64,000 bases of DNA from a virus: IMG/VR virus record IMGVR_UViG_3300045988_087402; one strand, 5' to 3'. The notes below the pieces were generated by a model, which did no database searches, was not told the origin of the DNA, and saw only the letters and a program-made list of their open reading frames with translations. Below, piece after piece: positions 76 to 53,292 of the stretch (positions are counted from its first letter, which is position 1; each line of letters begins with the position of its first letter). The position numbers were made by a program, and so were the translations under genes.

Positions 76-101
76 GGCCACAAGGGCGAGAGGGTGTTCC
101 G
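76..101 (+). repeat. GC-rich conserved element, copy 1 (GGCCACAAGGGCGAGAGGGTGTTCCG; extended conservation about 66-110). Intergenic.
   Basis: Near-identical to six other copies at 825-849, 10123-10148, 12870-12893, 35839-35863, 52931-52956 and 53136-53161. It is a GC island in an AT-rich background. Confidence 0.85.
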
Positions 102-311
102 ATATTCGTTTGCTTATAAAGTAACACTTGTATCTATTTAATCGTCTTAAAAAGATATCAAAAATCTGGAATAAAATATTCTTTCTTAAAATCACTCGTT
201 TTGTAAGGACGTGGCTCCTCCATTTCTTCGAGTAATTGCCAAATCGGATTATCAAAAGTCACAGATGTCGTACGAATATCATCCACACGACGATTTTCCT
301 GCCGATTATTT

Positions 312-959
312 TTACGAATCTCTAAATTCGTCTTTTCCATGTTCTTCTCCATTAGCTGATACATGTTTCCATTCTTTATATTTAATATCTCTTTTAGCAA
401 GTATATCACTAATTATAGCAAATGATTTATCATATTCTTCATAACATTTATTTTTATTAATATAAGCACAATCGTAAATAGGAATCATTATAGTATTAGC
501 ATAAGCTTTTGGTTTATTAACTTCATTTTTCATTATAATATTATTATTTTCAGTAAGAGCTTTAAGAACAGTTGAACCAAGTGGAACTATAATTAAAGGA
601 TTAATAGCTTTAATTTCTTCTATAAGATAATGTATACAATTTTTAATATATAATTTTTCATTATCCGTACCATAACATTTTACAAGATAAGTTAAATAAC
701 TCCATTCATCAAGTTTATAAAGAGTTATAGCTTGTCTAAGTAAAATATTATTTCTACCTGTAAATGGTTCTCCAATTTTAATATCAAGTGTAGAAGGAGC
801 TGCACCAATAAAGCAAATAGATTTCGGAACACCTCTCGCCCTTGTGGCCATAATACCGTGCATCCTATTATTGATAAGAGAACGATAACACGATGAACAA
901 TGAATGCCGAGTAAGTCTTTCCTTGCTGACATTTGATTTTCGGCCTGTTTTCTGCCCAT
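312..959 (-). CDS. Uracil-DNA glycosylase, family-4-like (UDG superfamily)
   Basis: A Cys cluster (CSSCYRS) is followed by VPKSICFIGAAPS...GEPFTGRNNILL. This resembles the UDG4 VFGEGxP...VGEAPG...GxPFVGxAGxLL pattern with a preceding Fe-S Cys motif. GC-element copy 3 lies in-frame in this ORF and encodes MATRARGVP. Confidence 0.55.
   Translation of the reverse strand: MGRKQAENQMSARKDLLGIHCSSCYRSLINNRMHGIMATRARGVPKSICFIGAAPSTLDIKIGEPFTGRNNILLRQAITLYKLDEWSYLTYLVKCYGTDNEKLYIKNCIHYLIEEIKAINPLIIVPLGSTVLKALTENNNIIMKNEVNKPKAYANTIMIPIYDCAYINKNKCYEEYDKSFAIISDILAKRDIKYKEWKHVSANGEEHGKDEFRDS
825..849 (-). repeat. GC-rich conserved element, copy 3 (reverse orientation), in-frame inside the UDG CDS
   Basis: Plus strand reads CGGAACACCTCTCGCCCTTGTGGCC. 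The reverse complement ATGGCCACAAGGGCGAGAGGTGTTCC is translated as MATRARGVP within ORF 312-959. Confidence 0.85.
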
Positions 960-1043
960 ATTTTAATTATTTTTCAACGGGTGGAGAATTGTTTAGGAAT
1001 GAATAGAAAGTTCCTAAAAAGTGCCTTAAAATTCGATTAAAAG

Positions 1044-1445
1044 CTATATCACTCTATTGCCATTATTATCTCTTTTTATATTAGCAAGTTTATCTGCCCA
1101 AGCCTCTGCATAAAAACTATAATAATCATATTTAATAAAAGGTATTCTATTTATAAGATTATTAATAGCTGATGGAATACCTATAATAATTAAATATAAC
1201 CAACCTAAATAAATACTTTGCTTACAATGTCCTATTTCATGATTAATAGTAAGTTTACTATGTCTGTTATTAATAATTATATAATTACCTAATGAAACAC
1301 CTATATTACTATTAGTTAAATATATATTTACAGTATTTTTCTTACTATTTAGTTTATAACCATATTTAGCTTTAAATATAGCTATTGATATAAGAGCAAC
1401 TATATTTTGTGGTAGCTGCCAAATATAAAGAATAGTTTTAATCAT
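1044..1445 (-). CDS. Small hydrophobic protein with an HExxH (HEIGH) zincin-like motif. Candidate metallopeptidase of ImmA/IrrE or SprT-like size.
   Basis: The motif INHEIGHCKQS sits in a 133-aa ORF with hydrophobic segments. There is no further homology evidence. Confidence 0.3.
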   Translation of the reverse strand: MIKTILYIWQLPQNIVALISIAIFKAKYGYKLNSKKNTVNIYLTNSNIGVSLGNYIIINNRHSKLTINHEIGHCKQSIYLGWLYLIIIGIPSAINNLINRIPFIKYDYYSFYAEAWADKLANIKRDNNGNRVI

Positions 1446-1616
1446 ATTTTAAATAGCATGTATAGATTCTAAAAAACTATAAATTAAAATAAGTACAAAA
1501 CATATTGCAAGGAATTGTCCTAAACAACCATCTACATCTGTAACATGTTCATTTTCATTATTAGAATAACTATCTCTGTAGTCATCATCATCGTAATACA
1601 TAATTATAATATAATT

Positions 1617-3119
1617 TTAATATTTTAATATAGCTTTTTTTCTGGCTCGACTTAAAGCAACATAAATAAGTCGATTTCTCATATTAATATCATACGCCTT
1701 TTTATATCCTTTCGAACTTTGATACCAAGTAATATCTGTTAAATCTACAGCAACATTATCAAATGTACTTCCTTGTGATTTATGAACAGATAGTCCAAAT
1801 CCATAATCTATATCTTTTTTAATAACTTTTTCATTACCATAAGCATCATGTATTACAACAGGAATTAAAGTAAGAAAACGATTTTTAAAATTATAATACG
1901 CTTTCCAACCACCTCCTATACGTTTTAAACCATTTATATAAAGAGTTTGTAATACACGTTTATAAAGATTAAAACTTGCATCAGTATGGTCAACAATTAA
2001 GAAAGGGTCTGTCTTCCTTTCATCATACATAGATTGTAAATTAACTCCAAAGGTTTTAATTCCCTCATCTGATACATAATCTATAAGTTCATATATTATA
2101 TAATCTTCTGAATTAAGTATAATAGGTTCACTAAATTCATTCATTATAGTATTATATGAAGTAAATAAGTCATTCATACAAACTGCTGGAAGATTATCAC
2201 CTAATAGATTATTTCTAACATATTGATTCCAATTAAGAACATTATTATTTGTATAACTTAATATACGAATATAATCTGTATTAGACGGAATACCTTTTTT
2301 ATTATTACCTATAAAAGATTCACTACCTATTTCTTCTATACATTTAGATTTAAAATCTTCTCTATATAATAATTCGTATCCTCTATCGTTTATAATATTA
2401 CTTCTATTATTAATAATATAATTAAGAAAAGTATTACCTTTATTTTGAATATCATATCTAATAAGACTAAACAATTCAAGTAAAGGATTTCCTTCTTCTT
2501 GTCTAACAATAGTATCTAAAACTACTTTTCTCTTAATTGTAGCAAAAGTTGGTGACATATTTTCTTTAACAGGAGGTAACTGTAAACTATCACCAATATA
2601 TAAAACTTTTATTTTATGATTAGCACATACTTTTGTTATACGATTAAACAAACCTGTATTAACCATAGAACATTCATCAAGTAGTACAATTTTATAATTA
2701 ACAATTTTTAAATCAGAAAGTTGGTCATATTGCGGATTAGTTGGGTCAAAAGTAGTTAAATCTACATTCGGCTTTAATCCTAAAAGAGAATGTAGAGTTT
2801 TACCTTTATGATTTACTGTATTTTCTAATACTCGAAGAGCTTTATGTGTAGGAGCACTAATTGTCCAAGTTTTATCAATAATATTTTCAATAAAATATTT
2901 CATGATAAACGTTTTACCTGTTCCAGCATAACCTTCAAGAGTACAAAACAGTTCATTACTTTTATACCAATCTTCAAGTTGTTGTACAGCTCTTTCTTGA
3001 CTCGGATAAAGTTTAATATTACTATTTTTAACTTTATTAATAGCTGTATTACTTTTATTATTTACATTTGTATTAGCTTTTACAATATTATCTAATTTAT
3101 TTTTTTCAGTATCATTCAT
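1617..3119 (-). CDS. SF1B DNA helicase (Dda/RecD/PIF1-like)
   Basis: Walker A GYAGTGKTF, Walker B/motif II LLDECSMV, motif III YIGDSLQLPPV and motif V/VI SVHKSQGSTFDNV are all present. These are hallmark motifs of RecD/Dda-type SF1B helicases. Confidence 0.8.
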   Translation of the reverse strand: MNDTEKNKLDNIVKANTNVNNKSNTAINKVKNSNIKLYPSQERAVQQLEDWYKSNELFCTLEGYAGTGKTFIMKYFIENIIDKTWTISAPTHKALRVLENTVNHKGKTLHSLLGLKPNVDLTTFDPTNPQYDQLSDLKIVNYKIVLLDECSMVNTGLFNRITKVCANHKIKVLYIGDSLQLPPVKENMSPTFATIKRKVVLDTIVRQEEGNPLLELFSLIRYDIQNKGNTFLNYIINNRSNIINDRGYELLYREDFKSKCIEEIGSESFIGNNKKGIPSNTDYIRILSYTNNNVLNWNQYVRNNLLGDNLPAVCMNDLFTSYNTIMNEFSEPIILNSEDYIIYELIDYVSDEGIKTFGVNLQSMYDERKTDPFLIVDHTDASFNLYKRVLQTLYINGLKRIGGGWKAYYNFKNRFLTLIPVVIHDAYGNEKVIKKDIDYGFGLSVHKSQGSTFDNVAVDLTDITWYQSSKGYKKAYDINMRNRLIYVALSRARKKAILKY

Positions 3120-3122
3120 ATA

Positions 3123-3482
3123 TCAAAAAGGATTTTCTAATTGATTATTATCTCTGTTAATTTCCTTATGTAATATAGAAAAAGCAACGATAATAGAATT
3201 TTCATAAGTTGTATCATTTATATCTTCAATATCTACTTTAGCAAGTAATTCCATAAAAGTTTCATCAAAAGGATGGATATTATATTTATATATTCTAAAA
3301 CTATCTGGAAGAATAACAATTCCCATTTTATGTTTAGTAACTAAAAAATGATTTATTATAGTAAATTGAAACTTAATTGGTAACTTAGTAAAAAAAGCAG
3401 ATATATTATTATTATTTTCTCTAAGATATTCAGTAAAACTATTAAGAGCTTTATTAAAATTTCTTATCTTTTCTATTAGCAT
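3123..3482 (-). CDS. Hypothetical protein (early/replication arm)
   Basis: 119-aa ORF tightly packed behind the helicase on the same strand. Confidence 0.4.
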   Translation of the reverse strand: MLIEKIRNFNKALNSFTEYLRENNNNISAFFTKLPIKFQFTIINHFLVTKHKMGIVILPDSFRIYKYNIHPFDETFMELLAKVDIEDINDTTYENSIIVAFSILHKEINRDNNQLENPF

Positions 3483-3912
3483 TTTTAATATTATTTTGTG
3501 ATTTTAAATAACAAAGTTTACTAATAGTATTTACATAATCTATATCAAGAATAAAATAACCATCTTCTATAATACCTTTTATTCTTTGACGAGGTTTAAC
3601 AATACTCCAATATTTAATTGTAATATCTAATCTCGTACCATTTTTACTATTTTTCTTAATAGTCCAAGGTTTATGTTGATTATTAGTAATACCATTAGAA
3701 TATATATAATCAACATTATTTAAATCTTCTTGATTTATTTTAATAGGAATAAACTCGTAAGGTTTTTTATTTGATTTAGCATAAAACTTATTATCATAAA
3801 GAATAGCGACAGTATGTTTACTGCCGCTATTTTCTTTATCATTACTTCTTGTTCTTACTATACCTCTTTGTATATTATTCAGTTTCTCATAATTCATAAT
3901 TATTTTCCACAT
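3454..3912 (-). CDS. Hypothetical protein
   Basis: 152-aa ORF, co-oriented and overlapping its neighbours in operon-like packing. Confidence 0.4.
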   Translation of the reverse strand: MWKIIMNYEKLNNIQRGIVRTRSNDKENSGSKHTVAILYDNKFYAKSNKKPYEFIPIKINQEDLNNVDYIYSNGITNNQHKPWTIKKNSKNGTRLDITIKYWSIVKPRQRIKGIIEDGYFILDIDYVNTISKLCYLKSQNNIKNANRKDKKF

Positions 3913-4493
3913 TTATCACATACACATCGAAGCATACTTTTCTTATTGTTTACACCAATTTTTGTAAAGTCTTCTCGATTACAAGTTATAACATTACCTT
4001 TTGTAAGTTTGATTGTAAATTTATGTGTATTTTTATCAAACTTAGTAACTACACCAATTCTTTCATCTTTATGATAAAGAGAATTAGCATCTATTATAGA
4101 AATATTTGTTATCTCTACAGCTTCGTTAGGTACGGTTTTTGTATATATAGTTTCAAAAGCTCCTTGAATCTTAATTGTTACACCTTCTAAAAGAGCATCT
4201 AAATAAGTTTTATTAGTTTCTTCATCTTCATTATTAATTTTAGATTTTAGAAAGTCAGCTATAGAATCAAAATTTCCATGAATTATGCTATAAGTTTGAT
4301 TATCATATTCTCCAATAAATTTTGCAACTTTATTTCGTATATCTTTAATAGGATATATATTATTATCAGAAAGAGTTACATTCTTTTCTTTATAATCTAT
4401 ATTTTCTACTTTAAGAAGATTATTATCTATAAGAATATAATAATTCTTTTTTACAATAGTTTCTATCGGTATAAGTTTAAGAGTAAATTCCAT
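3900..4493 (-). CDS. Hypothetical protein with a C-terminal Cys cluster (CVCDKCGK)
   Basis: 197-aa ORF, same-strand operon packing, with a terminal zinc-ribbon-like Cys motif. Confidence 0.4.
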   Translation of the reverse strand: MEFTLKLIPIETIVKKNYYILIDNNLLKVENIDYKEKNVTLSDNNIYPIKDIRNKVAKFIGEYDNQTYSIIHGNFDSIADFLKSKINNEDEETNKTYLDALLEGVTIKIQGAFETIYTKTVPNEAVEITNISIIDANSLYHKDERIGVVTKFDKNTHKFTIKLTKGNVITCNREDFTKIGVNNKKSMLRCVCDKCGK

Positions 4494-4496
4494 AAT

Positions 4497-4931
4497 TTAA
4501 GATATTAATATTTTAGTTATTTTGACAACTTGATTTATCTTTTTACATATCTTATCTGATATAATAGTTATTAGAGTTTTATTATCATAAGAATTGGAAT
4601 CAAATAATACAGTACCTTTTTCAATAGCTATTTCATCTGAAGTTTCAATAAGTTTATCACAATATTTAAAACTATAATAAACCTTAAAAACTACAGAATT
4701 TGTAGCAAGTCGAACTTGGTCTTTAAACATCCAATATTCTTTACTACCTATTCTGACTAATACTTTATCAATTCCATATTCATTTTTTATATTAATTACT
4801 GTACCATAACGACTACGACTTGTTATAACTAAACTTCCGATTTTTATTTCGTCTATCATCGTTTTCTTCTTTAATATATTCTTTATTAGTTCTCTTATGT
4901 TTCTTATTCTTATTAAAATCATGAATTTCAT
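4497..4931 (-). CDS. Hypothetical protein
   Basis: 144-aa ORF, 4 nt from the upstream gene on the same strand. Confidence 0.4.
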   Translation of the reverse strand: MKFMILIRIRNIRELIKNILKKKTMIDEIKIGSLVITSRSRYGTVINIKNEYGIDKVLVRIGSKEYWMFKDQVRLATNSVVFKVYYSFKYCDKLIETSDEIAIEKGTVLFDSNSYDNKTLITIISDKICKKINQVVKITKILIS

Positions 4932-5172
4932 TAGAATAAGAATCCAAATCTCTAATATTAATTTTAGGCATTATATTTTATTTATATCTTTATGATATAC
5001 ACAAATATTATTTTCAAAAATATTATCGACAATTCGTTTATCAAGTCTTTTACAAATATAATAAGTTTTATTATCAACTTTTGTTTACGACTTTTATATG
5101 AATATATTTCTTACAATAATGTTCTTTTGGAATAACTTTTGGATTAATTTTAGATTTCATAGTTTTAATAGT

Positions 5173-5460
5173 TTAAATATAAACAACAGAAATATTACGT
5201 ATATACATAGATTTTATATCAATATAATAATCATATATCATAATATCTTCGGTAACTTTTTCTGTAATTTCTTTTATAAGTTCTATAATAGATTCTGAAT
5301 TAGAAGTTATTCTAATATTAGAATAATTAGCAACTATTTCAAAATAATCACCATCTATTATAATTCCATTTCCATTTTCAGGTATAACAGTAAGTATACA
5401 AGTTTTTGAATCTTTGTTAATAATAAAATTATCCATAATTATAAGTTTATTAAATTGCAT
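5173..5460 (-). CDS. Hypothetical small protein
   Basis: 95-aa ORF, co-oriented with the arm. Confidence 0.3.
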   Translation of the reverse strand: MQFNKLIIMDNFIINKDSKTCILTVIPENGNGIIIDGDYFEIVANYSNIRITSNSESIIELIKEITEKVTEDIMIYDYYIDIKSMYIRNISVVYI

Positions 5461-5561
5461 AATAAAAGGATGTAATATTAATATATAATTAATACCACAT
5501 CCTATAACTAAAATATAATCATCTTAAACATAATCTTTATAATAAAGATTATTATCTTTTG

Positions 5562-5647
5562 TACCGAAAGCGGGAATCGAACCCGCACGACCTCTTATGG
5601 TCATAGGATTTTAAGTCCTACGTGTCTACCTATTCCACCATTTCGGC
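5562..5647 (-). tRNA. tRNA-Leu, anticodon UAA, type II with a long variable arm
   Basis: The minus-strand sequence GCCGAAATGGTGGAATAGGTAGACACGTAGGACTTAAAATCCTATGACCATAAGAGGTCGTGCGGGTTCGATTCCCGCTTTCGGTA folds as a cloverleaf. The acceptor stem is 7 bp (GCCGAAA/TTTCGGT with one G-U). The anticodon stem is TAGGA/TCCTA with loop CTTAAAA, giving anticodon TAA. The variable stem is GACC/GGTC. The T arm is GCGGG-TTCGATT-CCCGC. Confidence 0.85.
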
Positions 5648-5656
5648 GATTAAAAT

Positions 5657-5689
5657 AAGTAGTAAGATTTATCACAAATGTTACTACTT
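5657..5689. ncRNA. Stem-loop A. The stem is 9 bp (AAGTAGTAA/TTACTACTT) and the 15-nt loop is GATTTATCACAAATG. It lies 9 nt from the tRNA-Leu 5' end.
   Basis: Direct reading. It is paired with stem-loop B at 5750-5780, which has an identical loop but a different, fully compensatory stem. Both are preceded by TAAAATAA. Confidence 0.6.
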
Positions 5690-5749
5690 TGTCCATTCTA
5701 AACCTCTGACTATTTTATCATGAACAATGAAATTAATTTATAAAATAAT

Positions 5750-5780
5750 GCCAATAAGATTTATCACAAATGTTATTGGC
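5750..5780. ncRNA. Stem-loop B. The stem is 8 bp (GCCAATAA/TTATTGGC) and the 15-nt loop GATTTATCACAAATG is identical to that of stem-loop A.
   Basis: The loop is conserved and the stem has covaried against stem-loop A at 5657-5689. This is a structural, RNA-like conservation signature. Confidence 0.6.
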
Positions 5781-6926: not shown

Positions 6927-6947
6927 AATAATTTCTATATTTTAATG

Positions 6948-9835: not shown

Positions 9836-10083
9836 TATGACATTTAATGGTAAATAAATTACTAAAAATAATACGGAAAATGAAGATGCTCCAGATAATA
9901 TATTTCGAGATAAAATTGAAGATATGATTGAAGATAATTCTAAAGATGGATTTGAAGGTAGACTTTAAGATAATTTAGAAAGTGTATGTAAAGATGATTG
10001 TAAAGATATAGTTTGAGATTTAAATTGAAATACAATTATTAATATAATTATTAATACAATTTTAAATTATATAAATATGTTAG

Positions 10084-10104
10084 TTGCAAAGACAGTTGTA
10101 ACGT
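10084..10104 (+). repeat. GTTGCAAAGACA-GTTGTAACG, a two-unit remnant of the 12-mer array seen at 1-60. It lies upstream of GC element copy 2.
   Basis: Same unit and same arrangement as at the window start, so the whole block of about 80-100 bp is a direct repeat about 10 kb apart. Confidence 0.7.
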
Positions 10105-12460: not shown

Positions 12461-12869
12461 GTTTTACAATTAAATGTAATAAAAGTATCATCTTAATTTT
12501 AAATAGTATTATAATCTACAAGTACATCATTTTCAATACTATTTTCAATACTATTTATATCAATACTTATATTAATATTTATACCAGTAGTTTTAATATG
12601 ATTATAATTCGAGTCGAACTTTAATTAATATTTATTAATCGAAAGTGATTAATTTTAATATTAATTCTAATATTAATTTAAAGAATAATGCGATGGAAAG
12701 CAATAGCGAGAGCGAAAGCAGATAGATAATAATTAGTAAATATAATAATTTAAGGAGAGCGAAAGCGACAATTATATTAATAATATATTTAATAATTAAT
12801 GTAGCTACAAGTGCGAGATTATAATGACGAATAATTGAAAGAGAATTAAGAAGAGCTTCGGAAGAATTT

Positions 12870-12893
12870 CGGAACACTCCCTCCCTTGTGGCC
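12870..12893 (-). repeat. GC-rich conserved element, copy 4 (reverse orientation). Reverse complement: TTAATGGCCACAAGGGAGGGAGTGTTCCGAAATTC.
   Basis: Aligns with copy 1 including the CTCCG-GTTAAT left flank. It sits in an inverted position relative to copy 2, about 2.7 kb away. Confidence 0.8.
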
Positions 12894-12930
12894 ATTAACT
12901 CGGAGAAATACAAGTATCTATATTATTTAT

Positions 12931-12978
12931 AATAATATTTCTAATAGTATTTACAATAGTATTTACAATAGTATTTCT
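12931..12978 (+). repeat. Tandem 12-mer array (AATAGTATTTAC/AATAGTATTTCT), about 4 units, immediately upstream of the late arm
   Basis: Direct reading. Confidence 0.7.
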
Positions 12979-13153
12979 AATAATAGTTATTATAATTTTA
13001 TCCTTGATATATTTTACAGATAGTCTGTATGCTTCTTTTATACCTATTAATATAAATATCTTCTGTATTTGGATTTATAATGATTAATATATATATTGGT
13101 ATCGAAATAAATATGATAGTACATTTATTAATAACTAAATAATCAAATAAACT

Positions 13154-35102: not shown

Positions 35103-35795
35103 ATGGCAACTCTTAATCAACTTTCTTCTCGAATAGTTAATATGATTGGACAACCAGACAATCATGAATTACGAGAAAGAGTAAAAGATATGTTTAAAAA
35201 TATATTTGCTAAATATATTAGACAATCTTCTGAAAGACACGGAATAGATGAAATACTTACTTTAAGTTTTATAGCTTCTATAGATGAATTAGATTATGAC
35301 ACAATAAGACCTTCTAAATATAGAATACTTAATAAAAGAAAATTAATAGGAACTGTAAATAAATTACCGGTTCCTATTCGTATTTTTAATGATTCACCAT
35401 ATCTTTATGTAGGAAGTGTTAATGGAGAGGCATACAAATATATAAATAATCCTACAGAACTTGTATTTCAAAATAGTTTATTCCCTCCTAATGAAACTAT
35501 ATGTTATGTTATAGAAAATGGTAGAATATTATTATATAAACCTGATAATAAAAATACTCTTATTGATGATAGACGTTCTATTAATGAAATTATGATTAAA
35601 GCTGTATGGGAGAATCCTGAAGAAATATTAACTATGTTTGAAGATAATGATGGACAAGATATAGAACTTCCATTTCCAAGTGATATGATAGAGACAGCAA
35701 TATTTGAATTATTAAAAGTAGAATTTAATATAATATCTCGTGATAATGATATTAAATTAAAAGAAGATGTAACTTATAAGCAAAATGCTAATTAA
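35103..35795 (+). CDS. Hypothetical virion protein
   Basis: 230-aa ORF. Confidence 0.4.
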   Translation: MATLNQLSSRIVNMIGQPDNHELRERVKDMFKNIFAKYIRQSSERHGIDEILTLSFIASIDELDYDTIRPSKYRILNKRKLIGTVNKLPVPIRIFNDSPYLYVGSVNGEAYKYINNPTELVFQNSLFPPNETICYVIENGRILLYKPDNKNTLIDDRRSINEIMIKAVWENPEEILTMFEDNDGQDIELPFPSDMIETAIFELLKVEFNIISRDNDIKLKEDVTYKQNAN

Positions 35796-35863: not shown

Positions 35864-35931
35864 ATTAAACTGTATTTCAAACTATATAACATACTGTATA
35901 TCCAATTATATTTAATATTATATTTAATACT

Positions 35932-36795
35932 ATGTTTCTAATTAATTCAAAACCCAAAGCTCAAAATAAACTAAAAGGTTCTCAAACTGATTATTTTTAT
36001 AATGATTTTATTTATGAAGCTACTCTCAAATTGGATAGATATATTAGGCATTTACATTTAGCTTATACTAAACGTATAGAATTAATTAATATAATAGATA
36101 AAAATAAAGATTTTTATAATAATATAGGTATTGATATATCTCCTATTTATAATCCAGATTATTTTGGTACTATAAAATATGATAAAAAACAATATAATTC
36201 TAATCTTTTAAAAATGTCTTTTATAAAAAGTTATAACAATATTAATTATTATAAGATACATTTTCTTGATAGAAAGATTAAAACATATAATATAATCAGA
36301 CAGATACCTCGTCAAGTTTATGTTAATCTTCAAAAAGAATATAATTCAGAAGTTGCATCTTTTATATTAAAAGGCAATTCATTTAGTATAGGTAATGGTT
36401 TAGGATGTCTCAAATTAGATGTCTTTAGAAATCCGAGAGGAAATACTTCTAAAACTATTGACTGGAAGTCTTCATTAAAACTTAAAAAAGAACTTGAAGA
36501 TGCGGGTTATGAAGTTATGTCTAAAGATAATCCACATGGTATGCAATATGTTCTTTTTTATGATAATACATATTGTAATACATGGCTTCATTGGGAACGA
36601 CGTAATTCTAAAATTGTTCATAAATGGTATTATAAATTTGTATTCGCACAGAATAATAATTACTCTATAACTGCACTTAAATATAATGATATAGAAGAGA
36701 TATTCAATGATAAACGAATTGGTATAACAGAACGTTTGTCAGCTATTAATATATACTATCCCGAACATATTAAAAAATTAATGAAATATGAATGA
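35932..36795 (+). CDS. Hypothetical virion protein
   Basis: 287-aa ORF. Confidence 0.4.
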   Translation: MFLINSKPKAQNKLKGSQTDYFYNDFIYEATLKLDRYIRHLHLAYTKRIELINIIDKNKDFYNNIGIDISPIYNPDYFGTIKYDKKQYNSNLLKMSFIKSYNNINYYKIHFLDRKIKTYNIIRQIPRQVYVNLQKEYNSEVASFILKGNSFSIGNGLGCLKLDVFRNPRGNTSKTIDWKSSLKLKKELEDAGYEVMSKDNPHGMQYVLFYDNTYCNTWLHWERRNSKIVHKWYYKFVFAQNNNYSITALKYNDIEEIFNDKRIGITERLSAINIYYPEHIKKLMKYE

Positions 36796-45700: not shown

Positions 45701-45773
45701 TGATGCTTTTGCAGAATTAAGTGATTATTTGTTAAGTATCGGTTATCAAATGAATATAAATTATGGGAAATAA
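42771..45773 (+). CDS. Large virion protein (1000 aa)
   Basis: Clean ORF whose end overlaps the start of the giant gene. Confidence 0.5.
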   Translation: MVKIRTGQYNFGQINTPKMADISQIYASVGQQLNKMYYDNRQAYINNIVNPLSQMHANKDDEALLNEKKNAITDGANAFKESDNWHQASDYIYNTVENIITDEGLALINSKYQQRQAYIQSLKDSGWSQQQQDIFLARSDYYSTAVKEENGKVVEGAFNAVNYGTPYDINEQLDKITNIISKAKASSESITNISAEDAVIKGLANVLNVDGETFVSNFLQTTKSTESVSYDDLYNYVSQRLYNNQEYIDYKTTIEQNALFKERFIPDSNNPRGGTLRDLTPELLKDVFNQSYAINALVGTGISLSDLGQLNDNGTFTLNPNMTEDTIKKLTGISAALGFDMVSYLTTGISYSDNVDIDSLYEFLDVAFNNYIDNEFNNYLKNNNISLDNPNIEAYKENWYLNLRTQNAIQSEIHANADSLADLMSFTRTKVVYDLISNNSVYTTAYKHKKELETKYTTEGFTTASTLPDTPVNVGSTKSIQARKTELGETLAQIVNDSRSIPITENMYKVLNTMYGIEPGDVSSINKLDLSEILNNPDINLSDKEREAFQRLHRNNQIEAQIKGEIDNYDRELSDVYNILKDDVSNLDYTSQFIINHNITNYEDYKEYMAEFPNSGQAPINYIYPGNEIPYIAKDITDRKSRILTEDEFNKLQQSLTEHAAEIYKKKTGEDLNYTTKGVVIFNPTGVSRQYLDNAIDAIGTSSDSWVLENVQGTKKFNKNIGLSLANNPELVRLLLTHAPTSGSGTIPNIKDVGIDAKETGLPDKTYDIRYNIVYDNNDFAETGQAKQKILCTALDVNGAPLGSFTISRDISKEALLNMIQSDYNNIRTSQIYDNNISGENVLSESRGKIVSQAASHMFSFTPVTGVKNTTTAGSTLNLQARAQQLEVGTGINGDGEKLYVQSNLIIPTTQQNIGNAYFEISKESLGRGEYGYKVVMVQPDGKGNWVDASMLDWGDERLNHNFYTLSRKGMPVKNINDAFAELSDYLLSIGYQMNINYGK

Positions 45774-48700
45774 AATAGGAACTCCTGTAAGTTTAAATCC
45801 GGTAACTGTTGAAGATAAACCTTCGACAGTTATCGGAACTCCTGTTAAAATAAGTAATCCAACGGGAGGTCAATCTTTTATGCAAGGATTTATGTCAACA
45901 TCTCCTCGAAATTTTGATATATCTTCTTATCAAAAAATGATGAATAATGTTGATACAAATCTTCCTTTAAATATTCTTAATGAAGAAAGAGCACGTTATC
46001 AAAGTACAGGTCATTTAATAGGTAATTCTCTTATTCAATTAGGAGGTACTATAATAGGGGATATTATATCTGGAGTAGGAGCTTTATTTAATTTTAATAA
46101 AGTTGGTATAGAATTTATCAAAGATATTGTAGATACAAATTATCAACCGGATTGGACTACTATAATGAATAAAGGTGTTAGTGGTGCTATTCAAGATTTT
46201 GGTAAGTCTATAAGTGAGGGAAGTAGAGAAATAGCTCCTATATATTTAACTGAACGTGCTCAACGCGGTGGTCTTGCTGGAGGTATGGGAGATAAAACTT
46301 GGTGGGCTGCTAATTTTCCTACTATAGGTAGTGCTGCCACATCTATGATTCCTATTATGGGACAAATGAGAGCATTAAATTATATAGGTAAGTCATTATC
46401 AAAGGTTGGAAATGTTTCTAAAATAGGTAGAGGAATTAACACATTAGGTCGTACAATAACTAATAATAAAGTACAAGCTACAATAGGTACTCTTTATGGT
46501 GCACATTTGGATATTATGCAAGAAATAGTATATGACTATGATAATCAATTTCAATATGCTAAAAATCTTGGATATTCAGATGAAGAAGCTCGTGAATTTG
46601 CAAGTATTTATGCTTCTACTGCTTATAAAGATGCTTGGGCTTATGGAATACTTTTTAATGCTATAGAATTAAATAGTATATTAAAAGGTACAAATAGATT
46701 TTCAAAAACTATATCTGAAGTAGATAAAACTATTAATAAACATATTCCTGATATATCACGTCAAGGAACTAAGTTTACAGGTATTTCAGAAGAAGTTGTT
46801 GATTTATCCAAAAAGACTATATTTCGTGCAACTTTAGGAAAAAGTTATGATTTCTTTAAAACTTCTATTTCAGAAGGTCTTGAAGAAATGCGTACAGATA
46901 TAGCTTTAAAAGAAGGTGAATTAGAAGCTAAAAAATATCTTGATATTTATGACCCATTAAATGATATGACATTTGCGAAAAGACTTTATTCGCAAGTTAG
47001 TGATGCTCGAAATTGGGATAGTTTTTTATGGGGTATGGCAGGAGGTGCCGTAATGTATGCTGGAAAAGGTATATTAAATAAAATTCGTATGCCAGATTCA
47101 TATAAAGATTATAATAAAAAATTATATGAAGGTATAATGAATAGTTTACAAGATACTATAAATACTATAGCTACATTTGATGGAGATTTAAGTATAAGAA
47201 CCAGTTTAGAAGAAGACCCTGCAATAACTATATTAGCTCCTTTATTTAATACTTTAGGAGCTGCCAACGCAATAGTTTATGGAGAAAGATTATTAGATGA
47301 ACTTGGAACTATGACTTCTGAAGAATTAACTGCTGTTTACGGTTCTGATAAAACAGAACTTATAAATACTCTTCGAGAAGAATTTAAAATAGCTAAAGAT
47401 ATATATGTTAGAAATGCTGATATAACTTATAATAGCAAAGCTGATGATTATATTCAAAATGAAATGGCAGGTTTAGAGTATTTACATAATTATTATACTC
47501 GTAAATTTAATGAGATAGAAACAGAGATACAAAGAATTAAAACTCTAAACGATGATTTAGATATAAAACGAGATAATGAACTTAAAGAATTAGATGGTAG
47601 ATTATATAAATTAAATTCTGATAAAGAATCTCTTTTAAATTCTATTAAATTTAATGAAGCCAATTCTAATGCGATAGATAAATTTGTTAATAGTAAAGAA
47701 ACTTCTGAAAAATTAAACGATTTAAAACGCGAAAAAGAATCTTTAGAAAAAGAGATAAAATCTATTAAACAAACTATTAAATCTAATAATACTCGTAATG
47801 ATAATATTCGACGTAATTTAGATAGATTGAATAGTTTATTATTAAATTCTGAAACTGATACTGAAAAAGAACAATATAAAACTGAGTTAAAACATAATAA
47901 AAATAAACTTAGAGATAATAGTAAAAATATAGATAATTTATATATTAAAGAACAAGCTTTATCTGGAATTGAAACTTCTATTGCATATTTAAATGGTGAA
48001 ATAGAATCTCAATTAAAAAGAAAAGAATTTAATACAAAAGCTATCGAAAGAGCTAAATCTACAATAGATATGATAGATGCTCAAATAGATAAATATAAAG
48101 AATCAAGAGGTGATATAATTAAACGTTATGAAGAAATAAGAAAAGATTATGATTCAATTCCGAGAGTTAAAAATATTACTTTAGAGGATTTAACTAAGCT
48201 ACGAGATAATATATTTAAACAACTTTCTAATTATGGAAATATACAAGACCATAAAGAAGAATTTGCTAATAATCTTAAAACAGCTGTAGAATCTATAATT
48301 GATATTGAAACTAAAGAATTAGAACGTAAAGAATATAAGATTGAAGAAGATAAGAAAAATACAGAATCTGAAATTAAAGAAGAAGATGAATTTAATAATC
48401 GTCCTACATCTATAAAAACAGTTTTAAATGAAGGTGAATATATAACTTTAACTATAGATGATTTAAATAGGATTAGAAGTTTTATAATAAAAGGTAAGAA
48501 ATATGATTTAAATAAAATTTATAATATACGAGGAAAAGATGTAGAAATAATTAATATAAAAGATGATAATGGAATTATAAAAGTTACTACACCAGAGGGT
48601 GATATTCTGGCTGTAATATTTAATATGTTATCATCTCGTGATAATAGTGGATATTCAAAGACAATTTATAATGCGATAGATAGATTTACAAAAAGTAATT

Positions 48701-51700
48701 TTGAAAATGATTTTTATGATACATTAGTTGATTTAGATAAAGCATTAAATAATGATAAATTTAAAAAGGCTTTTACTTTTAAAGTTTCTAATATAGATAT
48801 TATAAGTATAAGAGGTAGAGCTATAGAAGGAATTATTAATAATCTAACTAAATATGCAAATGATAGAATTAATGAAGATAATCAGAAATTATATGATAGA
48901 GTTTATAATGAATTAAATTCCATATATGCTCAATCTGTATATGACGGAGAAATTCTTTTAATAAAAGATTATTTATATGATATATTTTATATAAATCTTC
49001 CTGCTAAATCTGCTGAAATAAATAATCAATTTAATAGTGAATATTTAGATAAATTTATAGATAATTTAGCTAAATACATAGAACGTTATATTTCTATTGA
49101 TTTTACTAATGATAAATTTAAGTTTAAATATAATACAAATATTAATGAATTTATTAATACATTAGAGATATATTTTGATGAATTTGAAAGTCTATTAGCT
49201 AATAAGTTTTATACTCAATATACTCTTCAAGATTTTAGTGATTTAAATAATGAATTAGCAAATAAGTTTAATTCTTTTAAAGAACAATTATTAAAAGATT
49301 ATAATAAACAGCAAGAAGTTAGGAAAACTGAATTAGATAAAATTAGAGCTGAATTAGATACAGAAGAATCTGCAAATAAAGACTTTCTAAATGCTATAAT
49401 AGATTTTATATCTTTTAGTAAATCTACTGATTCAAATATAGAAGATAGAGAAAATATATCTAAAAATGATTATAGATATTATGTAACTCCTGATAGATTA
49501 AATGCATATATCACCTTAGCAAATGTTATATCTAAATGGAAAGTATCTAATTCTTTTAATCCTAATAGAAAACTTTCATATACGGATATTTTATCTATTA
49601 TATATAATACTCCGGAAGGTATTGAAAAAATAGATGATATTTATAAATCTTTATGGAGAGCTTTAAAAGCTGCTTCTGATATTGATTCTATAGAATCTCT
49701 AAAAGATGAAATAAAAGAGAATGTTCCTAAAGAAAATTATAAAGAATTTTTTAATATATTAGATACTATAGTAAATAATATAGTTCCTCCTATACGTTCT
49801 ATCGAAAGTAAATATCTTGATAAATTTGATAATATTACTTCTGCTTATATTAAAGATTTTAAGAAAACACATTTTCCAGAAAGAATCGAATATGGTACAC
49901 ATGAAGGTGTTCCTTTAAGTAATAATATAATATTCGATTCTCTTAAATCTGCTATGGATTCTAAATCTAATAAAATAGAACATTTAATAAAAATCGAAGA
50001 TAAAACTTATTCTCCTACCGAATTAATAAATATTTATAAAAATATTACAAATGGTACACCTATAGCTGCTAAATATGATATTGAATCTAATATTGTAACT
50101 CTTACTGTTACTATTAACGGAAATACTGTACCTATTGGTAGTATTGGATTATCCGACCACTTGAAAATCGGCAATTTAAAGGCATATAAAGAACTTAAAA
50201 ATTCCGGTGGAACACTTATATACGACAGTTTTTTGGGTACGTCAGATGGCTTAAAATCGACCTTAATAAGCCTATTACAAACGGTATCAAAAAGTCCCAC
50301 TACATACGACTTAATACGTGAATATTTTAAAACTTATTTAAATGCTAAGACAAATAATACTACGACAGATAGCCTTACTATTGATATACTTAAAGATATT
50401 ATAAGTAAATTAGATAAAATAGGTACACATAAAAATGCTGGAGGACATTCTAATATAGTTAACGCTCTTATACAACTTTCTAATTATAATACGGAGAGAG
50501 AAGATACAGATGAAATAAATTATGAAGATTTATTTACTATCATTCAACCTATGTTTTATGGTAGACTGAATATTATTGATTCTCTTAATAATAATTATTA
50601 TGATTTAAAAAATAGTTATGAAATATTTAATAGTCGTGTTGGAGAAAGATTTAATCAATTAGAAACTCTTAGAAAAGCTATAATTAATAATCCTGATGCA
50701 CCACTTATTATAACATATATAGGAAAACCTCGTATTAATTATAGTAATGATAGACGTATAAAAAATAATATAAATGATTCTATTCAAAAAGATATAGAAG
50801 TTAATGGAAAACCTACTGTAGATATTATAGCAAGACAATTAACAAATAATAGATATATTGTATCTTCATTAACCAGAAATGAAATAGTATCTGATGATGC
50901 TGCAAAGCGTACAATATATGACCCTAACAGAGGATTTGATTTTTATGTTAGAATAAAGTCGAATGGAACTGATACAGGTTTTAGTTATGTTCCTATTAAA
51001 CTTACTACTGTAAATTCTGATACTGCATATTCAAGAGTTAGTAAAGAATTTATTGAAGATGCTATTCGACAAATAATAACAGATAGGTTTCTAACTAATC
51101 TTTCTACAAGACAATCTAAAGATAATGTAATTGTTTCAGATTTAGTTAAGAAAGAATATAATAAAAAATATTTAAATCTTATTGATGATATAAGCGAAGC
51201 TATTATAGTTAATAATGGTGAAAAATCTAAGTTTCCTTGGTTTGATACAAGTACACTTTATGATAATAAAAAAGAAGGTTTTGTAAGTAAAGATATTAAA
51301 TTTATTATTAATAAGGACGATGAACATTCTTATGCTGTCTCTCTTAGAATTAATTATGAGCATGATATTGATGTAGATTCTCCGTCTATAATAAAGAATA
51401 TAAAACTTACAGTTTATGATAGTAGAGAAAATCGTATAAAAGGTACTCCAAAAGATATATTTACTCAGACAGAATTATCTAAATACGGATTTGCTAAAAG
51501 AGATAGTAAAATAAATAAATCGGATGTTATTACATATAGTAAATCAGATAAAAGTAAAACTATAACATTTGATGTTAATAATGATAATATAGAAAATTTT
51601 ATTAAAAGTGGACTTATAGATATGTTAGTTGGTAATATGGTTCGTAATGTAAAAACTGTATTAACAAATGGTTCATATACATATACTTCTAAAGCTACAG

Positions 51701-53292
51701 GAGCTTCATTTGGAAAATCATATAATGAAATAGATAAAAATAATATAATAAAAGGAGATAATAATTCTAAAGTATTTAAGGGAACTTATACATCTCCTAT
51801 TTTGGAGTGGGGTAAAGAAAAAGGTATATATAGTGGTAAAACTACTTTTGATTCTATACAAGATTTTTATCTTGATACAAAAGCATTAGTTACAAATATA
51901 ATACCTATTAGAGATAATGTTACAAATGAAGTTGTAACTGATTATAATCTTTTTAATGATTTACCGAGAATTTATGTAAAGATTGATAATCCTAATGCAG
52001 AAATTGAACAAACTAAACCTATAGAAACTATAAAAGAAGAAGAATTAAGTAAGAGTGTAAATATTATTGAAAATATTGCTTCTGCTAATGTATATTCTGA
52101 AGATAATTTTATTGATAAATTGAATAATGAATATGGTTTAACAAAAGATACTTTTATAAATATAGGATTTATTAAAAGAAATACTACAGATGAAGTATTT
52201 AATATAATTAAAGATTTTATTGTAGAAACTGTAGATTCTGGTAAACCATTTCCTTTAATTATAGTACATAATGTAGAAGATTATATTCGTATATTAAGAA
52301 GTCAAGGTTATATTGATGCATCTGATGATGAATTAACTAAAAATTATAATATGATGGGAGCTTCTTATAGCGGTTATACATCAACTCCTTTTATATTAGT
52401 TAATCCAAAAATATTTAATACTACTAAACGAAATATTGGTAGTGGTATATTTCATGAAATTATTCATCATAGAGTTGAAAAAGATACGGAAAATGATGTT
52501 ATAACTGATGATGTAAAAGAGGCTTTAAATGATATAGTTAAAGATTTAGTAGAACGTAAAGAAGAAGTATTACGATATGATATAGAAGATTCTATTAAAA
52601 ATAGTATATCAAAATCTTTAAAAGTAGCTTGTTATAATTCGGATGGAACTATAAATGAAGATGTTGCATATCACGAACTCTTAGCTTATACATTATCTAA
52701 TCCAAATTTAGCTGGTTATTTAAATAATATATATTATAAAGAAGAAACTAATAGACCGAGTGAATCTATTTGGAAAAGAATTATTGATAATCTTCTTAAA
52801 TTATTTGGTATAAAAGTTAATAATAATAGTGTACTTCAACAAATACAAAATGCTTTTGATGAAGGTTTTATGTTTATTGTTAATAGTGTAGAAGTTGAAA
52901 ATAATGAAAATGCTACAAGCAAACAAACTTCGGAACGCCCTCCCGCCCTTGTGGCCAATAAACAAGCGTCAATAGATGACATTGATGTTACAACTCTATC
53001 GGATGAAGAATTTATGAATAATGGCGATGAATTGTTTTTACGAATAGATTTCGCAATTTCTGATGAAACTACGAATGAAATTTCTGATGAAACTACGAAT
53101 GAAGCTATAGAGCCAAAAGATGACACTTCTATATTGGCCACAAGGGCGGGAGGGCGTTCCGCTGTTCTTCCGACTAATTCTATAAATTCTTCTGACAATC
53201 GAAATAAATTATTATCTTTAAATATTGATACTAATATTATTGATTCTTTTAAGGATTCTTTTACTGATAGTTCTAATTTAAAAATATGTTAA
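45763..53292 (+). CDS. Giant virion-associated protein (2509 aa) with a long central coiled coil and an HExxH motif (FHEIIHH) near the C-terminus. It contains two in-frame GC-element copies.
   Basis: Uninterrupted 7.5-kb ORF. Coiled-coil region about residues 560-900. The zincin-like HEIIH occurs at about 52450. Copies 6 and 7 encode SERPPALVAN and LATRAGGRSAV. Confidence 0.6.
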   Translation: MGNKIGTPVSLNPVTVEDKPSTVIGTPVKISNPTGGQSFMQGFMSTSPRNFDISSYQKMMNNVDTNLPLNILNEERARYQSTGHLIGNSLIQLGGTIIGDIISGVGALFNFNKVGIEFIKDIVDTNYQPDWTTIMNKGVSGAIQDFGKSISEGSREIAPIYLTERAQRGGLAGGMGDKTWWAANFPTIGSAATSMIPIMGQMRALNYIGKSLSKVGNVSKIGRGINTLGRTITNNKVQATIGTLYGAHLDIMQEIVYDYDNQFQYAKNLGYSDEEAREFASIYASTAYKDAWAYGILFNAIELNSILKGTNRFSKTISEVDKTINKHIPDISRQGTKFTGISEEVVDLSKKTIFRATLGKSYDFFKTSISEGLEEMRTDIALKEGELEAKKYLDIYDPLNDMTFAKRLYSQVSDARNWDSFLWGMAGGAVMYAGKGILNKIRMPDSYKDYNKKLYEGIMNSLQDTINTIATFDGDLSIRTSLEEDPAITILAPLFNTLGAANAIVYGERLLDELGTMTSEELTAVYGSDKTELINTLREEFKIAKDIYVRNADITYNSKADDYIQNEMAGLEYLHNYYTRKFNEIETEIQRIKTLNDDLDIKRDNELKELDGRLYKLNSDKESLLNSIKFNEANSNAIDKFVNSKETSEKLNDLKREKESLEKEIKSIKQTIKSNNTRNDNIRRNLDRLNSLLLNSETDTEKEQYKTELKHNKNKLRDNSKNIDNLYIKEQALSGIETSIAYLNGEIESQLKRKEFNTKAIERAKSTIDMIDAQIDKYKESRGDIIKRYEEIRKDYDSIPRVKNITLEDLTKLRDNIFKQLSNYGNIQDHKEEFANNLKTAVESIIDIETKELERKEYKIEEDKKNTESEIKEEDEFNNRPTSIKTVLNEGEYITLTIDDLNRIRSFIIKGKKYDLNKIYNIRGKDVEIINIKDDNGIIKVTTPEGDILAVIFNMLSSRDNSGYSKTIYNAIDRFTKSNFENDFYDTLVDLDKALNNDKFKKAFTFKVSNIDIISIRGRAIEGIINNLTKYANDRINEDNQKLYDRVYNELNSIYAQSVYDGEILLIKDYLYDIFYINLPAKSAEINNQFNSEYLDKFIDNLAKYIERYISIDFTNDKFKFKYNTNINEFINTLEIYFDEFESLLANKFYTQYTLQDFSDLNNELANKFNSFKEQLLKDYNKQQEVRKTELDKIRAELDTEESANKDFLNAIIDFISFSKSTDSNIEDRENISKNDYRYYVTPDRLNAYITLANVISKWKVSNSFNPNRKLSYTDILSIIYNTPEGIEKIDDIYKSLWRALKAASDIDSIESLKDEIKENVPKENYKEFFNILDTIVNNIVPPIRSIESKYLDKFDNITSAYIKDFKKTHFPERIEYGTHEGVPLSNNIIFDSLKSAMDSKSNKIEHLIKIEDKTYSPTELINIYKNITNGTPIAAKYDIESNIVTLTVTINGNTVPIGSIGLSDHLKIGNLKAYKELKNSGGTLIYDSFLGTSDGLKSTLISLLQTVSKSPTTYDLIREYFKTYLNAKTNNTTTDSLTIDILKDIISKLDKIGTHKNAGGHSNIVNALIQLSNYNTEREDTDEINYEDLFTIIQPMFYGRLNIIDSLNNNYYDLKNSYEIFNSRVGERFNQLETLRKAIINNPDAPLIITYIGKPRINYSNDRRIKNNINDSIQKDIEVNGKPTVDIIARQLTNNRYIVSSLTRNEIVSDDAAKRTIYDPNRGFDFYVRIKSNGTDTGFSYVPIKLTTVNSDTAYSRVSKEFIEDAIRQIITDRFLTNLSTRQSKDNVIVSDLVKKEYNKKYLNLIDDISEAIIVNNGEKSKFPWFDTSTLYDNKKEGFVSKDIKFIINKDDEHSYAVSLRINYEHDIDVDSPSIIKNIKLTVYDSRENRIKGTPKDIFTQTELSKYGFAKRDSKINKSDVITYSKSDKSKTITFDVNNDNIENFIKSGLIDMLVGNMVRNVKTVLTNGSYTYTSKATGASFGKSYNEIDKNNIIKGDNNSKVFKGTYTSPILEWGKEKGIYSGKTTFDSIQDFYLDTKALVTNIIPIRDNVTNEVVTDYNLFNDLPRIYVKIDNPNAEIEQTKPIETIKEEELSKSVNIIENIASANVYSEDNFIDKLNNEYGLTKDTFINIGFIKRNTTDEVFNIIKDFIVETVDSGKPFPLIIVHNVEDYIRILRSQGYIDASDDELTKNYNMMGASYSGYTSTPFILVNPKIFNTTKRNIGSGIFHEIIHHRVEKDTENDVITDDVKEALNDIVKDLVERKEEVLRYDIEDSIKNSISKSLKVACYNSDGTINEDVAYHELLAYTLSNPNLAGYLNNIYYKEETNRPSESIWKRIIDNLLKLFGIKVNNNSVLQQIQNAFDEGFMFIVNSVEVENNENATSKQTSERPPALVANKQASIDDIDVTTLSDEEFMNNGDELFLRIDFAISDETTNEISDETTNEAIEPKDDTSILATRAGGRSAVLPTNSINSSDNRNKLLSLNIDTNIIDSFKDSFTDSSNLKIC
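52931..52956 (-). repeat. GC-rich conserved element, copy 6 (reverse orientation), in-frame in the 2509-aa CDS
   Basis: Reads CGGAACGCCCTCCCGCCCTTGTGGCC. It forms an inverted pair with copy 7, 179 bp away. Confidence 0.85.
53057..53104 (+). repeat. Perfect 24-nt tandem duplication (ATTTCTGATGAAACTACGAATGAA)x2, encoding ISDETTNE x2, inside the segment bracketed by copies 6 and 7
   Basis: Direct reading. Confidence 0.8.
53136..53161 (+). repeat. GC-rich conserved element, copy 7 (forward orientation), in-frame in the 2509-aa CDS
   Basis: Reads GGCCACAAGGGCGGGAGGGCGTTCCG. Confidence 0.85.

Follow-up and report, generated by a model that had tools for sequence, protein, structure and literature searches.

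A GC-rich (guanine- and cytosine-rich) element of about 50 nt occurs in seven copies in the window analysed here, that is, the whole 64,000-nt stretch of viral DNA in the IMG/VR record IMGVR_UViG_3300045988_087402. Positions 11857-64000 of the window are 99.5% identical to the crAss-like phage cr127_1 (NC_055886/MT774393), and positions 1-11856 match it in blocks of 82-99% identity; cr127_1 (Kahucivirus intestinalis, Doltivirinae, Crevaviridae; 83,412 bp) is from human faeces, and the window runs in the reverse direction to its record. We propose, with a probability of roughly 0.45, that the element is a lineage-specific binding site for a phage factor, which probably controls transcription. 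The element would then be an old cis-acting signal that holds its genome positions, and not an insertion. That it has some function in cis, of whatever kind, and is not a selfish repeat is considered rather probable. The initial annotation had favoured a mobile GC cluster and had listed, among other alternatives, a recognition site for a phage DNA-binding protein; the latter appears to be the reading that fits best.

A cis-acting site with a fast-evolving reader is suggested by three features. One is that two constrained blocks enclose a free spacer. Another is that the copies are all-or-none. The last is that the positions are fixed while the sequence at them is lineage-specific. Transcription is regarded as the likely role because of where the copies lie.

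Copies of the element in the window and in cr127_1

The seven copies of the initial annotation were recovered with the same coordinates and strands: the exact 11-mer GGCCACAAGGG gives seven matches, at 76 (+), 849 (-), 10123 (+), 12893 (-), 35863 (-), 52956 (-) and 53136 (+). When the 26-nt core was searched with up to three mismatches, four of the copies were matched, and there was no match in 100 shuffles. A sequence-only covariance model, built from ten copies with no structure and run with the filters off, found exactly seven matches in the window (47-58 bits, E ≤ 1e-13), and the next best match, a 12-nt piece, scored 6.5 bits (E = 0.4). In the complete cr127_1 genome, the model found exactly ten copies and nothing of middling score; the three copies beyond the window are at record positions 19709 (-), 28708 (-) and 28869 (+). 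No decayed copies were detected by this model in the window or in cr127_1. The copies, the piece and the open reading frames (ORFs) discussed below are as follows.

63..115 (core 76-101), plus strand: copy 1, 56.7 bits
811..863 (core 825-849), minus strand: copy 2, 55.5 bits
10111..10160 (core 10123-10148), plus strand: copy 3, 52 bits, in the large non-coding repeat region
12858..12906 (core 12870-12893), minus strand: copy 4, 48.2 bits
35827..35877 (core 35839-35863), minus strand: copy 5, 58.5 bits
52918..52969 (core 52931-52956), minus strand: copy 6, 55.7 bits, in the C-terminal part of the 2509-aa ORF
53123..53174 (core 53136-53161), plus strand: copy 7, 47.2 bits
10883-10894, plus strand: possible 12-nt fragment of the head block, CACAAGGGCGAG, not a full copy, 6.5 bits
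312..959, minus strand: UDG ORF, with a Pfam UDG match at residues 47-171
45763..53292, plus strand: giant 2509-aa ORF, a virion protein gene with a low-complexity C-terminal part
53296-64000, plus strand: 4133-aa ORF, running off the window, with DFDID at residue 1481

The replication genes are on the minus strand at 1-7,600 of the window, the region of about 7,600-13,150 is largely non-coding and rich in repeats, and the structural and virion genes are on the plus strand from 13,154 rightward. The contexts first assigned to the copies held good: one lies in the UDG ORF, two lie in the 2509-aa ORF, and the remaining four of the seven are non-coding, with those at 76, 10123 and 12870 situated amid repeat-rich non-coding DNA. 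The accompanying statement that such GC density is otherwise absent from the genome did not hold. The GC content is about 20-34% per 2-kb step of the window and about 25% for the genome, and GC-rich segments are also found in a tRNA gene (5561-5647), an island (5897-5980), a hairpin (22376-22409) and at 54536-54561. The hairpin is part of a region downstream of the portal gene (22376-22440), in which GCCGCT-CTCCC-AGCGGC is followed by three units of AAATGGCCTTT and then by AAATTTCG; this region repeats the head motif of the element, TTTAATGGCC, without the remainder of the element.

Anatomy and conservation

The element had been described as 30-40 bp long. A conserved unit does exist, and its length is about 50 nt, as conservation extends beyond the core by about 15 nt on the upstream side (gatgCACaGTTTAAT) and by about 10 nt on the downstream side (AAATTCGTT). 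The consensus layout is gatgCACaGTTTAAT-GGCCACAAGGG-(8-10 nt)-GTTCCG-AAATTCGTT, and the element can be written as the 50-mer gatgcacagtttaatGGCCACAAGGGCGAGAGGTGTTCCGAAATTCGTT. It contains two nearly invariant blocks: the head, GGCCACAAGGG, on the GGCC side with a TTTAAT-like flank, and the tail, GTTCCG(AAAT). The reverse complement, ..AACGAATTTCGGAAC-spacer-CCCTTGTGGCCATTAAAC.., is hereafter referred to as the S orientation.

Conservation of the whole core had also been claimed; this is true of the two blocks, and the middle of the core is in fact its most variable part. When orthologous sites were compared among the available strains and metagenome contigs, using 80 nt on each side as flanks, the flanks differed pairwise by 5.1% and the centre by 16.3%, as against 0.4% for the head block and 0% for the tail block; the length of the centre differed in 11 of 48 pairs. 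The spacer is purine-rich, unconstrained and 8-10 nt long, varying by one base in either direction, and the core is accordingly 24-26 nt. The conservation of the blocks thus exceeds that of the flanks more than tenfold, a sign of purifying selection.

The claim that selection acts on the nucleotide sequence and not on an encoded peptide was supported by three observations: the coding copies are read on two strands, strain variants alter the residues, and four copies are non-coding. The copies in the UDG ORF and at 53136 are translated on the forward strand in the same frame (MATRARGVPKS and LATRAGGRSAV), and the copy at 52931 is translated on the reverse strand (SERPPALVAN); copy 2 encodes residues of about 37-48 of the UDG protein (MATRARGVPKSI), directly before the Pfam UDG domain. 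A small conserved peptide starting from an ATG or TTG before every copy was rejected because the core length of 24-26 nt shifts the frame. A conserved RNA structure was rejected as well: the folds of all copies in the sense orientation gave z-scores of -1.6 to +1.5 (mean about +0.5), which are not better than those of shuffled sequences, and Rfam gave a tRNA as its sole match in the window and none at the loci of the sister lineage described below. Since the element is without a hairpin plus T-run, it was also rejected as an intrinsic terminator. We found no published description of the element in the literature.

State of the sites in strains and orthologues

The initial annotation had compared the element with the GC clusters of yeast mitochondrial DNA (mtDNA) and with Rickettsia palindromic elements (RPEs), and had regarded mobility or intrusion as excluded if orthologous genes carry equivalent sequence at the protein level, with ordinary codon usage and no empty sites. 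Such was the situation found, and the mobile reading is not supported. The UDG orthologue P0003 (56% identical), the only moderately distant one found, aligns gap-free through a segment of equal length with ordinary AT-rich codons: across the element, HGIMATRARGVPKSICFIG of the window is aligned with HGMLADRGEESQSLICFIG of P0003, and the P0003 DNA there is CTGGCTGATAGGGGAGAAGAAAGTCAGTCACTT. In the 2509-aa gene, the sister lineage carries its own elements at both positions. No empty or presence/absence-variable sites were found among the Kahucivirus strains and metagenome contigs, a small sample of partial coverage with about five contigs per site at most; all recovered copy sites were filled, that of copy 1 in four strains.

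In the alignment and folds of the copies, there were neither terminal (inverted) repeats nor a palindromic fold, and target sites were not consistently duplicated; no transposase, RAYT (transposase associated with repetitive extragenic palindromic, REP, sequences), homing endonuclease or recombinase is annotated in cr127_1. The inner segments of the two close pairs are unrelated; the pairs are therefore not composite elements, and a composite miniature inverted-repeat transposable element was rejected. Nor is the element a generic motif equally frequent in host DNA, as had been considered: the scan of bacterial genomes gave at least 120 single chance matches, and the one true match among those listed was a 3.4-kb phage fragment. 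An origin from a host repeat or a CRISPR (clustered regularly interspaced short palindromic repeats) repeat was rejected, there being only chance matches among the bacterial matches listed. The 3.4-kb fragment of this phage (URQK01000116.1) is binned in a metagenome-assembled genome (MAG), 'uncultured Mollicutes bacterium UMGS1248', and represents either a low-GC binning artefact or a weak hint of the host. It was also found that about 40 GC-rich metagenome contigs, from soil and other sources, contain an abundant hairpin repeat, GTAGGGGCGGCCCTTGTGGCCGCCC, in inverted pairs about 160-185 nt apart, which contains the 11-mer GGCCACAAGGG as well; this repeat is unrelated and looks like a REP-like family, and the 11-mer presumably occurs in it by chance.

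Counterparts in related phages

A sister lineage, with contigs of up to 92 kb, a GC content of 34% and a capsid protein 72% identical to that of the window, has no window element detectable by the covariance model. It has a family of its own of about 11 copies, composed of AGTGGGCGYSCAACC, a variable pyrimidine stretch and CCCYACCGGG, often with a small GC hairpin. Its copies are at the following loci.

L070, 1869-1958 and 14643-14704: sister-family copies
contig IMGVR_UViG_3300045988_042075 (L086, L112, L129, L132, L140, L144, L178, L187): sister-family copies

The hairpins are of the GGCC-GAA-GGCC type, like the very stable GCGAAGC-type mini-hairpins, and two or three of the copies are within ORFs. 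Neither nhmmer nor the covariance model gave any similarity between the window and sister families. Sequence homology was therefore rejected, and what is common to the two families is only their positions and their architecture, namely ..AAC, a variable pyrimidine-rich stretch and CCCnnnnGG.

When the C-termini of the giant proteins were aligned, a sister sense copy and a degenerate inverted copy matched the positions of 52931-52956 and 53136-53161. The sister pair sits between the same conserved blocks, and a second sister variant has the same pair; as the C-terminus is of low complexity, this positional alignment is anchored on both sides, yet not beyond doubt. It follows from the alignment that the window element in its S orientation is equivalent to the sister element read forward. 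The pair in the 2509-aa gene is judged to predate the split from the sister lineage. The orthologue map of contig 042075 provided three further equivalent sites: one where the replication module ends, following the dUTPase gene, another upstream of the replication module, and the third upstream of the orthologue of ORF 35932..36795. At the last locus, that of copy 5, the sister element lies about 290 nt further upstream, inside the orthologous upstream ORF, and at that place the window orthologue differs by only 4 residues. At the convergent junction of the sister lineage, the last stop codon is followed by the element and then, about 100 nt past it, by a canonical hairpin-plus-T8 terminator; the presence of this separate terminator means that the element is not itself the terminator there.

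A third lineage (contig IMGVR_UViG_3300045988_088124; L381, L400, L412, L095) has the version GTAGGTTTCATCCCATCTGTTCCCCTACCGGGAC, whose stem GUAGG/CCUAC differs from GUGGG/CCCAC of the sister lineage by a compensatory change. In the phage cr271_1 (NC_055887.1, Intestiviridae), we found another dispersed motif of its own in 15 copies, cACATYTCTTCTACGGGGGAGC. The copies of this motif are mostly sense, and several are coding, including copies in the UDG, primase and giant genes; some are then followed by the complementary CCCTCGTAGA, which would make a long hairpin. A dispersed, lineage-specific motif of about 10-15 copies thus seems to be a general feature of these phages. For more distant orthologues of the giant protein, the protein search gave only a chimeric protein and a fragment, and the locus search gave only the known contigs. 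The chimeric protein, P0004, fuses a MreB/actin-like N-terminus to the C-terminus of the phage 2509-aa protein and is most likely an assembly chimera.

Positions relative to genes and the proposed role

The S orientation agrees with the direction of the genes in seven of the ten cr127_1 copies, and the other three are inverted partners of sense copies. A sense copy precedes the structural module and another the replication module; the remaining ones are upstream of the small ORF preceding the DNA polymerase gene, the primase gene, the small gene that follows the dUTPase gene, ORF 35932 and, at about 340 nt, the 4133-aa gene. Copy 1 occupies non-coding DNA between the UDG gene and the next gene, which is upstream of the DNA polymerase gene, and its S orientation follows the leftward replication genes. 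Copies 3 and 4 point away from each other: the S orientation of copy 3 is leftward, to the replication module, and that of copy 4, about 260 nt 5' of the first structural gene (13154), is rightward with the structural genes. Copy 5 is intergenic, between ORF 35103..35795 and ORF 35932..36795, with its S orientation along the genes. Copy 6 has its S orientation in the sense of the 2509-aa gene and lies about 340 nt 5' of the 4133-aa gene, and copy 7, in the same ORF, is its inverted partner, 179 nt apart. There are two such inverted pairs with distances of 160-180 nt, with AT-rich 12-nt repeats in between.

The anatomy of the element, its pattern of conservation, the number of copies, their kept positions, the lack of empty sites and, among the bacterial matches listed, the confinement to phage are shown by the above results, whereas we infer that a protein binds to the element and that transcription is the process controlled. 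In the proposed mechanism, a sequence-specific factor, phage-encoded or co-evolved with the phage, would read the two blocks and leave the spacer free. This factor would change fast between lineages; each related phage lineage has about ten copies of its own version, some of them at the same positions. The most likely job of the element would be transcription control, as a promoter- or operator-type site.

Several observations weigh against this proposal. Three of the ten copies face against the genes and, as promoters, would drive antisense RNA; one antisense partner is kept in the sister lineage and therefore cannot be dismissed as junk. The orientation bias of seven in ten alone is not significant. 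About half of the positions differ from those of the sister lineage. No recognisable sigma-70 promoter or Bacteroidetes -33/-7 promoter is present in the element, and a scan with the sigma-70 consensus was uninformative, since its counts in DNA this rich in AT were the same as in shuffles. The analysis yielded no candidate for the binding protein. Moreover, sub-groups of copies share tails of 7-9 nt at the same offset (TTTGCTT in 76, 849 and 52956; CGTTAATC in 10123 and 35863; TTCTTCCGA in 12893 and 53136). This indicates copying or gene conversion between sites, which selection on a binding site alone does not predict. In the UDG copy, TTTGCTT is native UDG coding sequence that is kept in P0003, which is suggestive, for this one sub-group only, of an origin of the family from the UDG gene.

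Related phages with T7-, T3-, SP6- and K11-type promoters have about 10-17 strongly conserved copies per genome and differ in consensus at equivalent positions. The window element resembles these promoters in the copy number, in being a motif of tens of bases, and in having a lineage-specific consensus at equivalent positions; the different consensus is expected because such sites evolve with the protein reading them. The T7-type promoters are, however, all co-oriented with transcription, lack a variable centre and are used by a single-subunit RNA polymerase, whereas the window element has a variable centre and opposed copies; moreover, we know of no T7-type single-subunit RNA polymerase in crAss-like phages.

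The closest analogue is the middle/late promoter motif of phi14:2 (Drobysheva, Sokolova et al., bioRxiv 10.1101/2020.03.07.982082), with which the element was compared by description. In phi14:2-like crAss phages, the middle promoter motifs number about ten per genome, 17 of 137 are coding, and they are often upstream of an RNA polymerase gene; DFDID is the catalytic motif of the phi14:2 gp66 virion RNA polymerase (bioRxiv 10.1101/2020.03.07.982082). The same catalytic motif is found in the 4133-aa protein, which is annotated as a hypothetical protein in the record and is a predicted homologue of the DFDID virion RNA polymerase. Both the window element and the phi14:2 motif are thus extended and multi-part, occur about ten times per genome, are mostly intergenic and sense with a coding minority, and lie upstream of the virion RNA polymerase gene. 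The phi14:2 motif differs in having -35-like and -10-like blocks and in being transcribed in vitro by sigma-70 RNA polymerase, whereas the window element is without recognisable host promoter hexamers, is GC-rich and has conserved inverted partners.

Alternative explanations

It is unlikely, although it would account for some of the above observations, that the element is a selfish non-autonomous repeat of the GC cluster, RPE or REP kind. Such a repeat would multiply by copy-and-paste or ectopic gene conversion, would be tolerated in frame where the protein segment is permissive, and would be kept uniform per genome by concerted evolution. The element is indeed multi-copy, GC-rich in a genome of about 25% GC, present in both orientations and found in three coding segments. 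The shared tails of the sub-groups, which imply copying between sites, are the main residual support for this explanation. In addition, about half of the positions differ between the sister lineages, and the sister copy within an ORF covers a segment that is encoded differently in the window orthologue, with only 4 extra residues. However, the strains and contigs examined differ at no site in the presence of the element, decayed copies and the structural marks of insertion are lacking, the UDG orthologue P0003 aligns without a gap, the blocks are conserved more than ten times better than the flanks, some copies have held their positions since before the genus split, and the cr127_1 annotation is without a transposase, RAYT or homing endonuclease.

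The yeast mtDNA GC clusters are strain-polymorphic, often palindromic and leave empty sites. The window element resembles them and the Magnusiomyces 'byp' elements in being short, GC-rich, present in both orientations of an AT-rich genome and partly coding; it differs from the yeast clusters in that no polymorphism, palindrome or empty site was found and in that the positions are kept between genera. RPEs are palindromic, 100-150 nt long and clearly inserted relative to orthologues. In-frame translation inside genes is possible for both, whereas the window element is about 50 nt, non-palindromic and placed over a segment of equal length in the orthologue. REP sequences and bacterial interspersed mosaic elements are imperfect palindromes, RAYT-dependent and essentially extragenic, with hundreds of copies. 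Their units of about 35-40 nt, frequent inverted pairs, location at gene boundaries and species-specific consensus are reminiscent of the window element, for which palindromy, hundreds of copies, extragenic restriction and a RAYT gene are all not true.

Somewhat less likely still is a signal at the RNA level, in which a C-rich unstructured segment of the sense transcripts (CGGAACACCUCUCGCCCUUGUGGCC) would serve mRNA processing, stability, translation control or Rho loading. The S orientation is the sense strand at most sites, and RNA of the S strand is rich in pyrimidines and has less structure than shuffled controls. The sister elements in the same orientation show G-U-compatible variation and small GC hairpins, one compensatory change across the lineages (GUGGG/CCCAC versus GUAGG/CCUAC) amounts to weak covariation, and one sister copy is in a 3' untranslated region, before the hairpin-plus-T8 terminator. 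On the other hand, the 5' half of the sister hairpin has been lost in the window family, whose copies show no consensus fold, the structure z-scores of the sister elements are modest (-0.3 to -2.2), and strains show no co-variation between the two centres of the giant-gene pair. Moreover, mRNA would not contain the three antisense copies, one of them kept across lineages, in the orientation that is active.

A quite improbable alternative is that the copies are polar sites in the DNA, aligned with the movement of the fork and used in replication, recombination or packaging. In this layout, 10123 and 12893 diverge from the non-coding repeat region, and the cr127_1 copies at 28708 and 28869 converge at the opposite pole; eight of the ten copies fit the polarity, and iteron-like 12-nt arrays adjoin the copy heads and fill the non-coding region. 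However, the polarity is inseparable from gene direction and two copies break the pattern. Known polar sites such as Chi and the FtsK-orienting polar sequences (KOPS) are of 5-8 nt and far more numerous than the copies of the element.

There is only a slight chance that the inverted pairs are DNA invertase sites, with the 231-bp unit 52931-53161 being an invertible coding cassette and the other pairs flipping regulatory DNA. All four nearest-neighbour pairs are inverted, and flipping 52931-53161 leaves the 2509-aa ORF open in every Kahucivirus strain tested, while only 1.2% of shuffled inner segments stay open. Bacteroides has invertible promoters on segments of 183-186 bp with the repeat GTTCGTTTAA (PMC8375218), and the segment size here is similar and this repeat faintly resembles the tail ATTCGTT. 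Against this, both close pairs are in the native orientation in all of about 10 metagenome contigs (consensus assemblies, in which minority forms could be hidden). In two sister-lineage variants, the frame acquires 3-5 stop codons when the segment is inverted in the same way, and in several strains the two arms do not have the same spacer. The annotation of the phage includes no recombinase, and flipping of the 76/849 pair would destroy the UDG gene. If it were true, a 58-residue segment would be swapped in frame upstream of the RNA polymerase gene, which would be phase variation within a crAss-like phage, and the variable spacers would decide which sites pair.

Repeat arrays beside the copies and other features

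Most copies are accompanied on their head (GGCC) side by tandem arrays with a period of exactly 12 nt, which keep phase with the copies. The arrays have a loose common consensus, TAAATACAGTTG, their copy number differs among strains, and their units are often 100% identical. Many different arrays of this kind are distributed across 9288-13001 of the window and fill the non-coding region. The arrays adjacent to the copies are as follows.

1..55, plus strand: 12-nt array GTTGTAAAGACA, 4.6 units, abutting the head of copy 1, copy number strain-variable
10029..10104, plus strand: 12-nt periodic repeats on the head side of copy 3, in phase, including GTTGCAAAGACAGTTGTAAC, which is common to copy 1
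12920..13001, minus strand: 12-nt array, 6.9 units, on the head side of copy 4
35867..35937, minus strand: two 12-nt arrays abutting the head of copy 5
53055..53107, no strand assigned: 24-nt (2 x 12) tandem repeat between the heads of copies 6 and 7

These arrays could be iterons or products of a 12-nt duplication process.

Three other features were noticed. One is a 204-bp segment at 147-350, about 45 nt from the tail of copy 1, which is present neither in cr127_1 nor in two other strains; it changes the C-terminus of the UDG protein and carries ORF 158..409 on the minus strand (83 aa from a GTG start, 64 aa from the second internal ATG), for which the family search gave no convincing match. 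Another is the 84-nt island 5897-5980, of about 75% GC, near the tRNA-Leu gene 5561-5647. Together with adjoining replaced sequence (5897-6047), it is not found in three other strains, and the island had no match in any other sequence fetched; either horizontal acquisition of a fragment or chimeric assembly could account for it. The last is outside the window, at 12271-15205 of cr127_1, where the DNA polymerase gene is annotated as two coding sequences with 623 bp between them, which could be an intron, an intein or another insert.

Implications

Few viruses of the human gut are as abundant as the crAss-like phages, most of which are without a cultured host. To our knowledge, gene regulation in these phages is almost unknown outside phi14:2 and crAss001. 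The element and its counterparts provide a map of candidate control points that is computable from sequence alone, and the concrete 50-mer could be used to fish for the factor that would read it. The GC-rich repeats found here within genes of an AT-rich genome also serve as a caution that such repeats need not be mobile. In metagenome-assembled crAss genomes, the lineage motifs could be of use in drawing the limits of genera and of transcription units. Finally, the same positions with fully replaced sequence between genera would constitute a clean natural example of cis-sites evolving with their reader.

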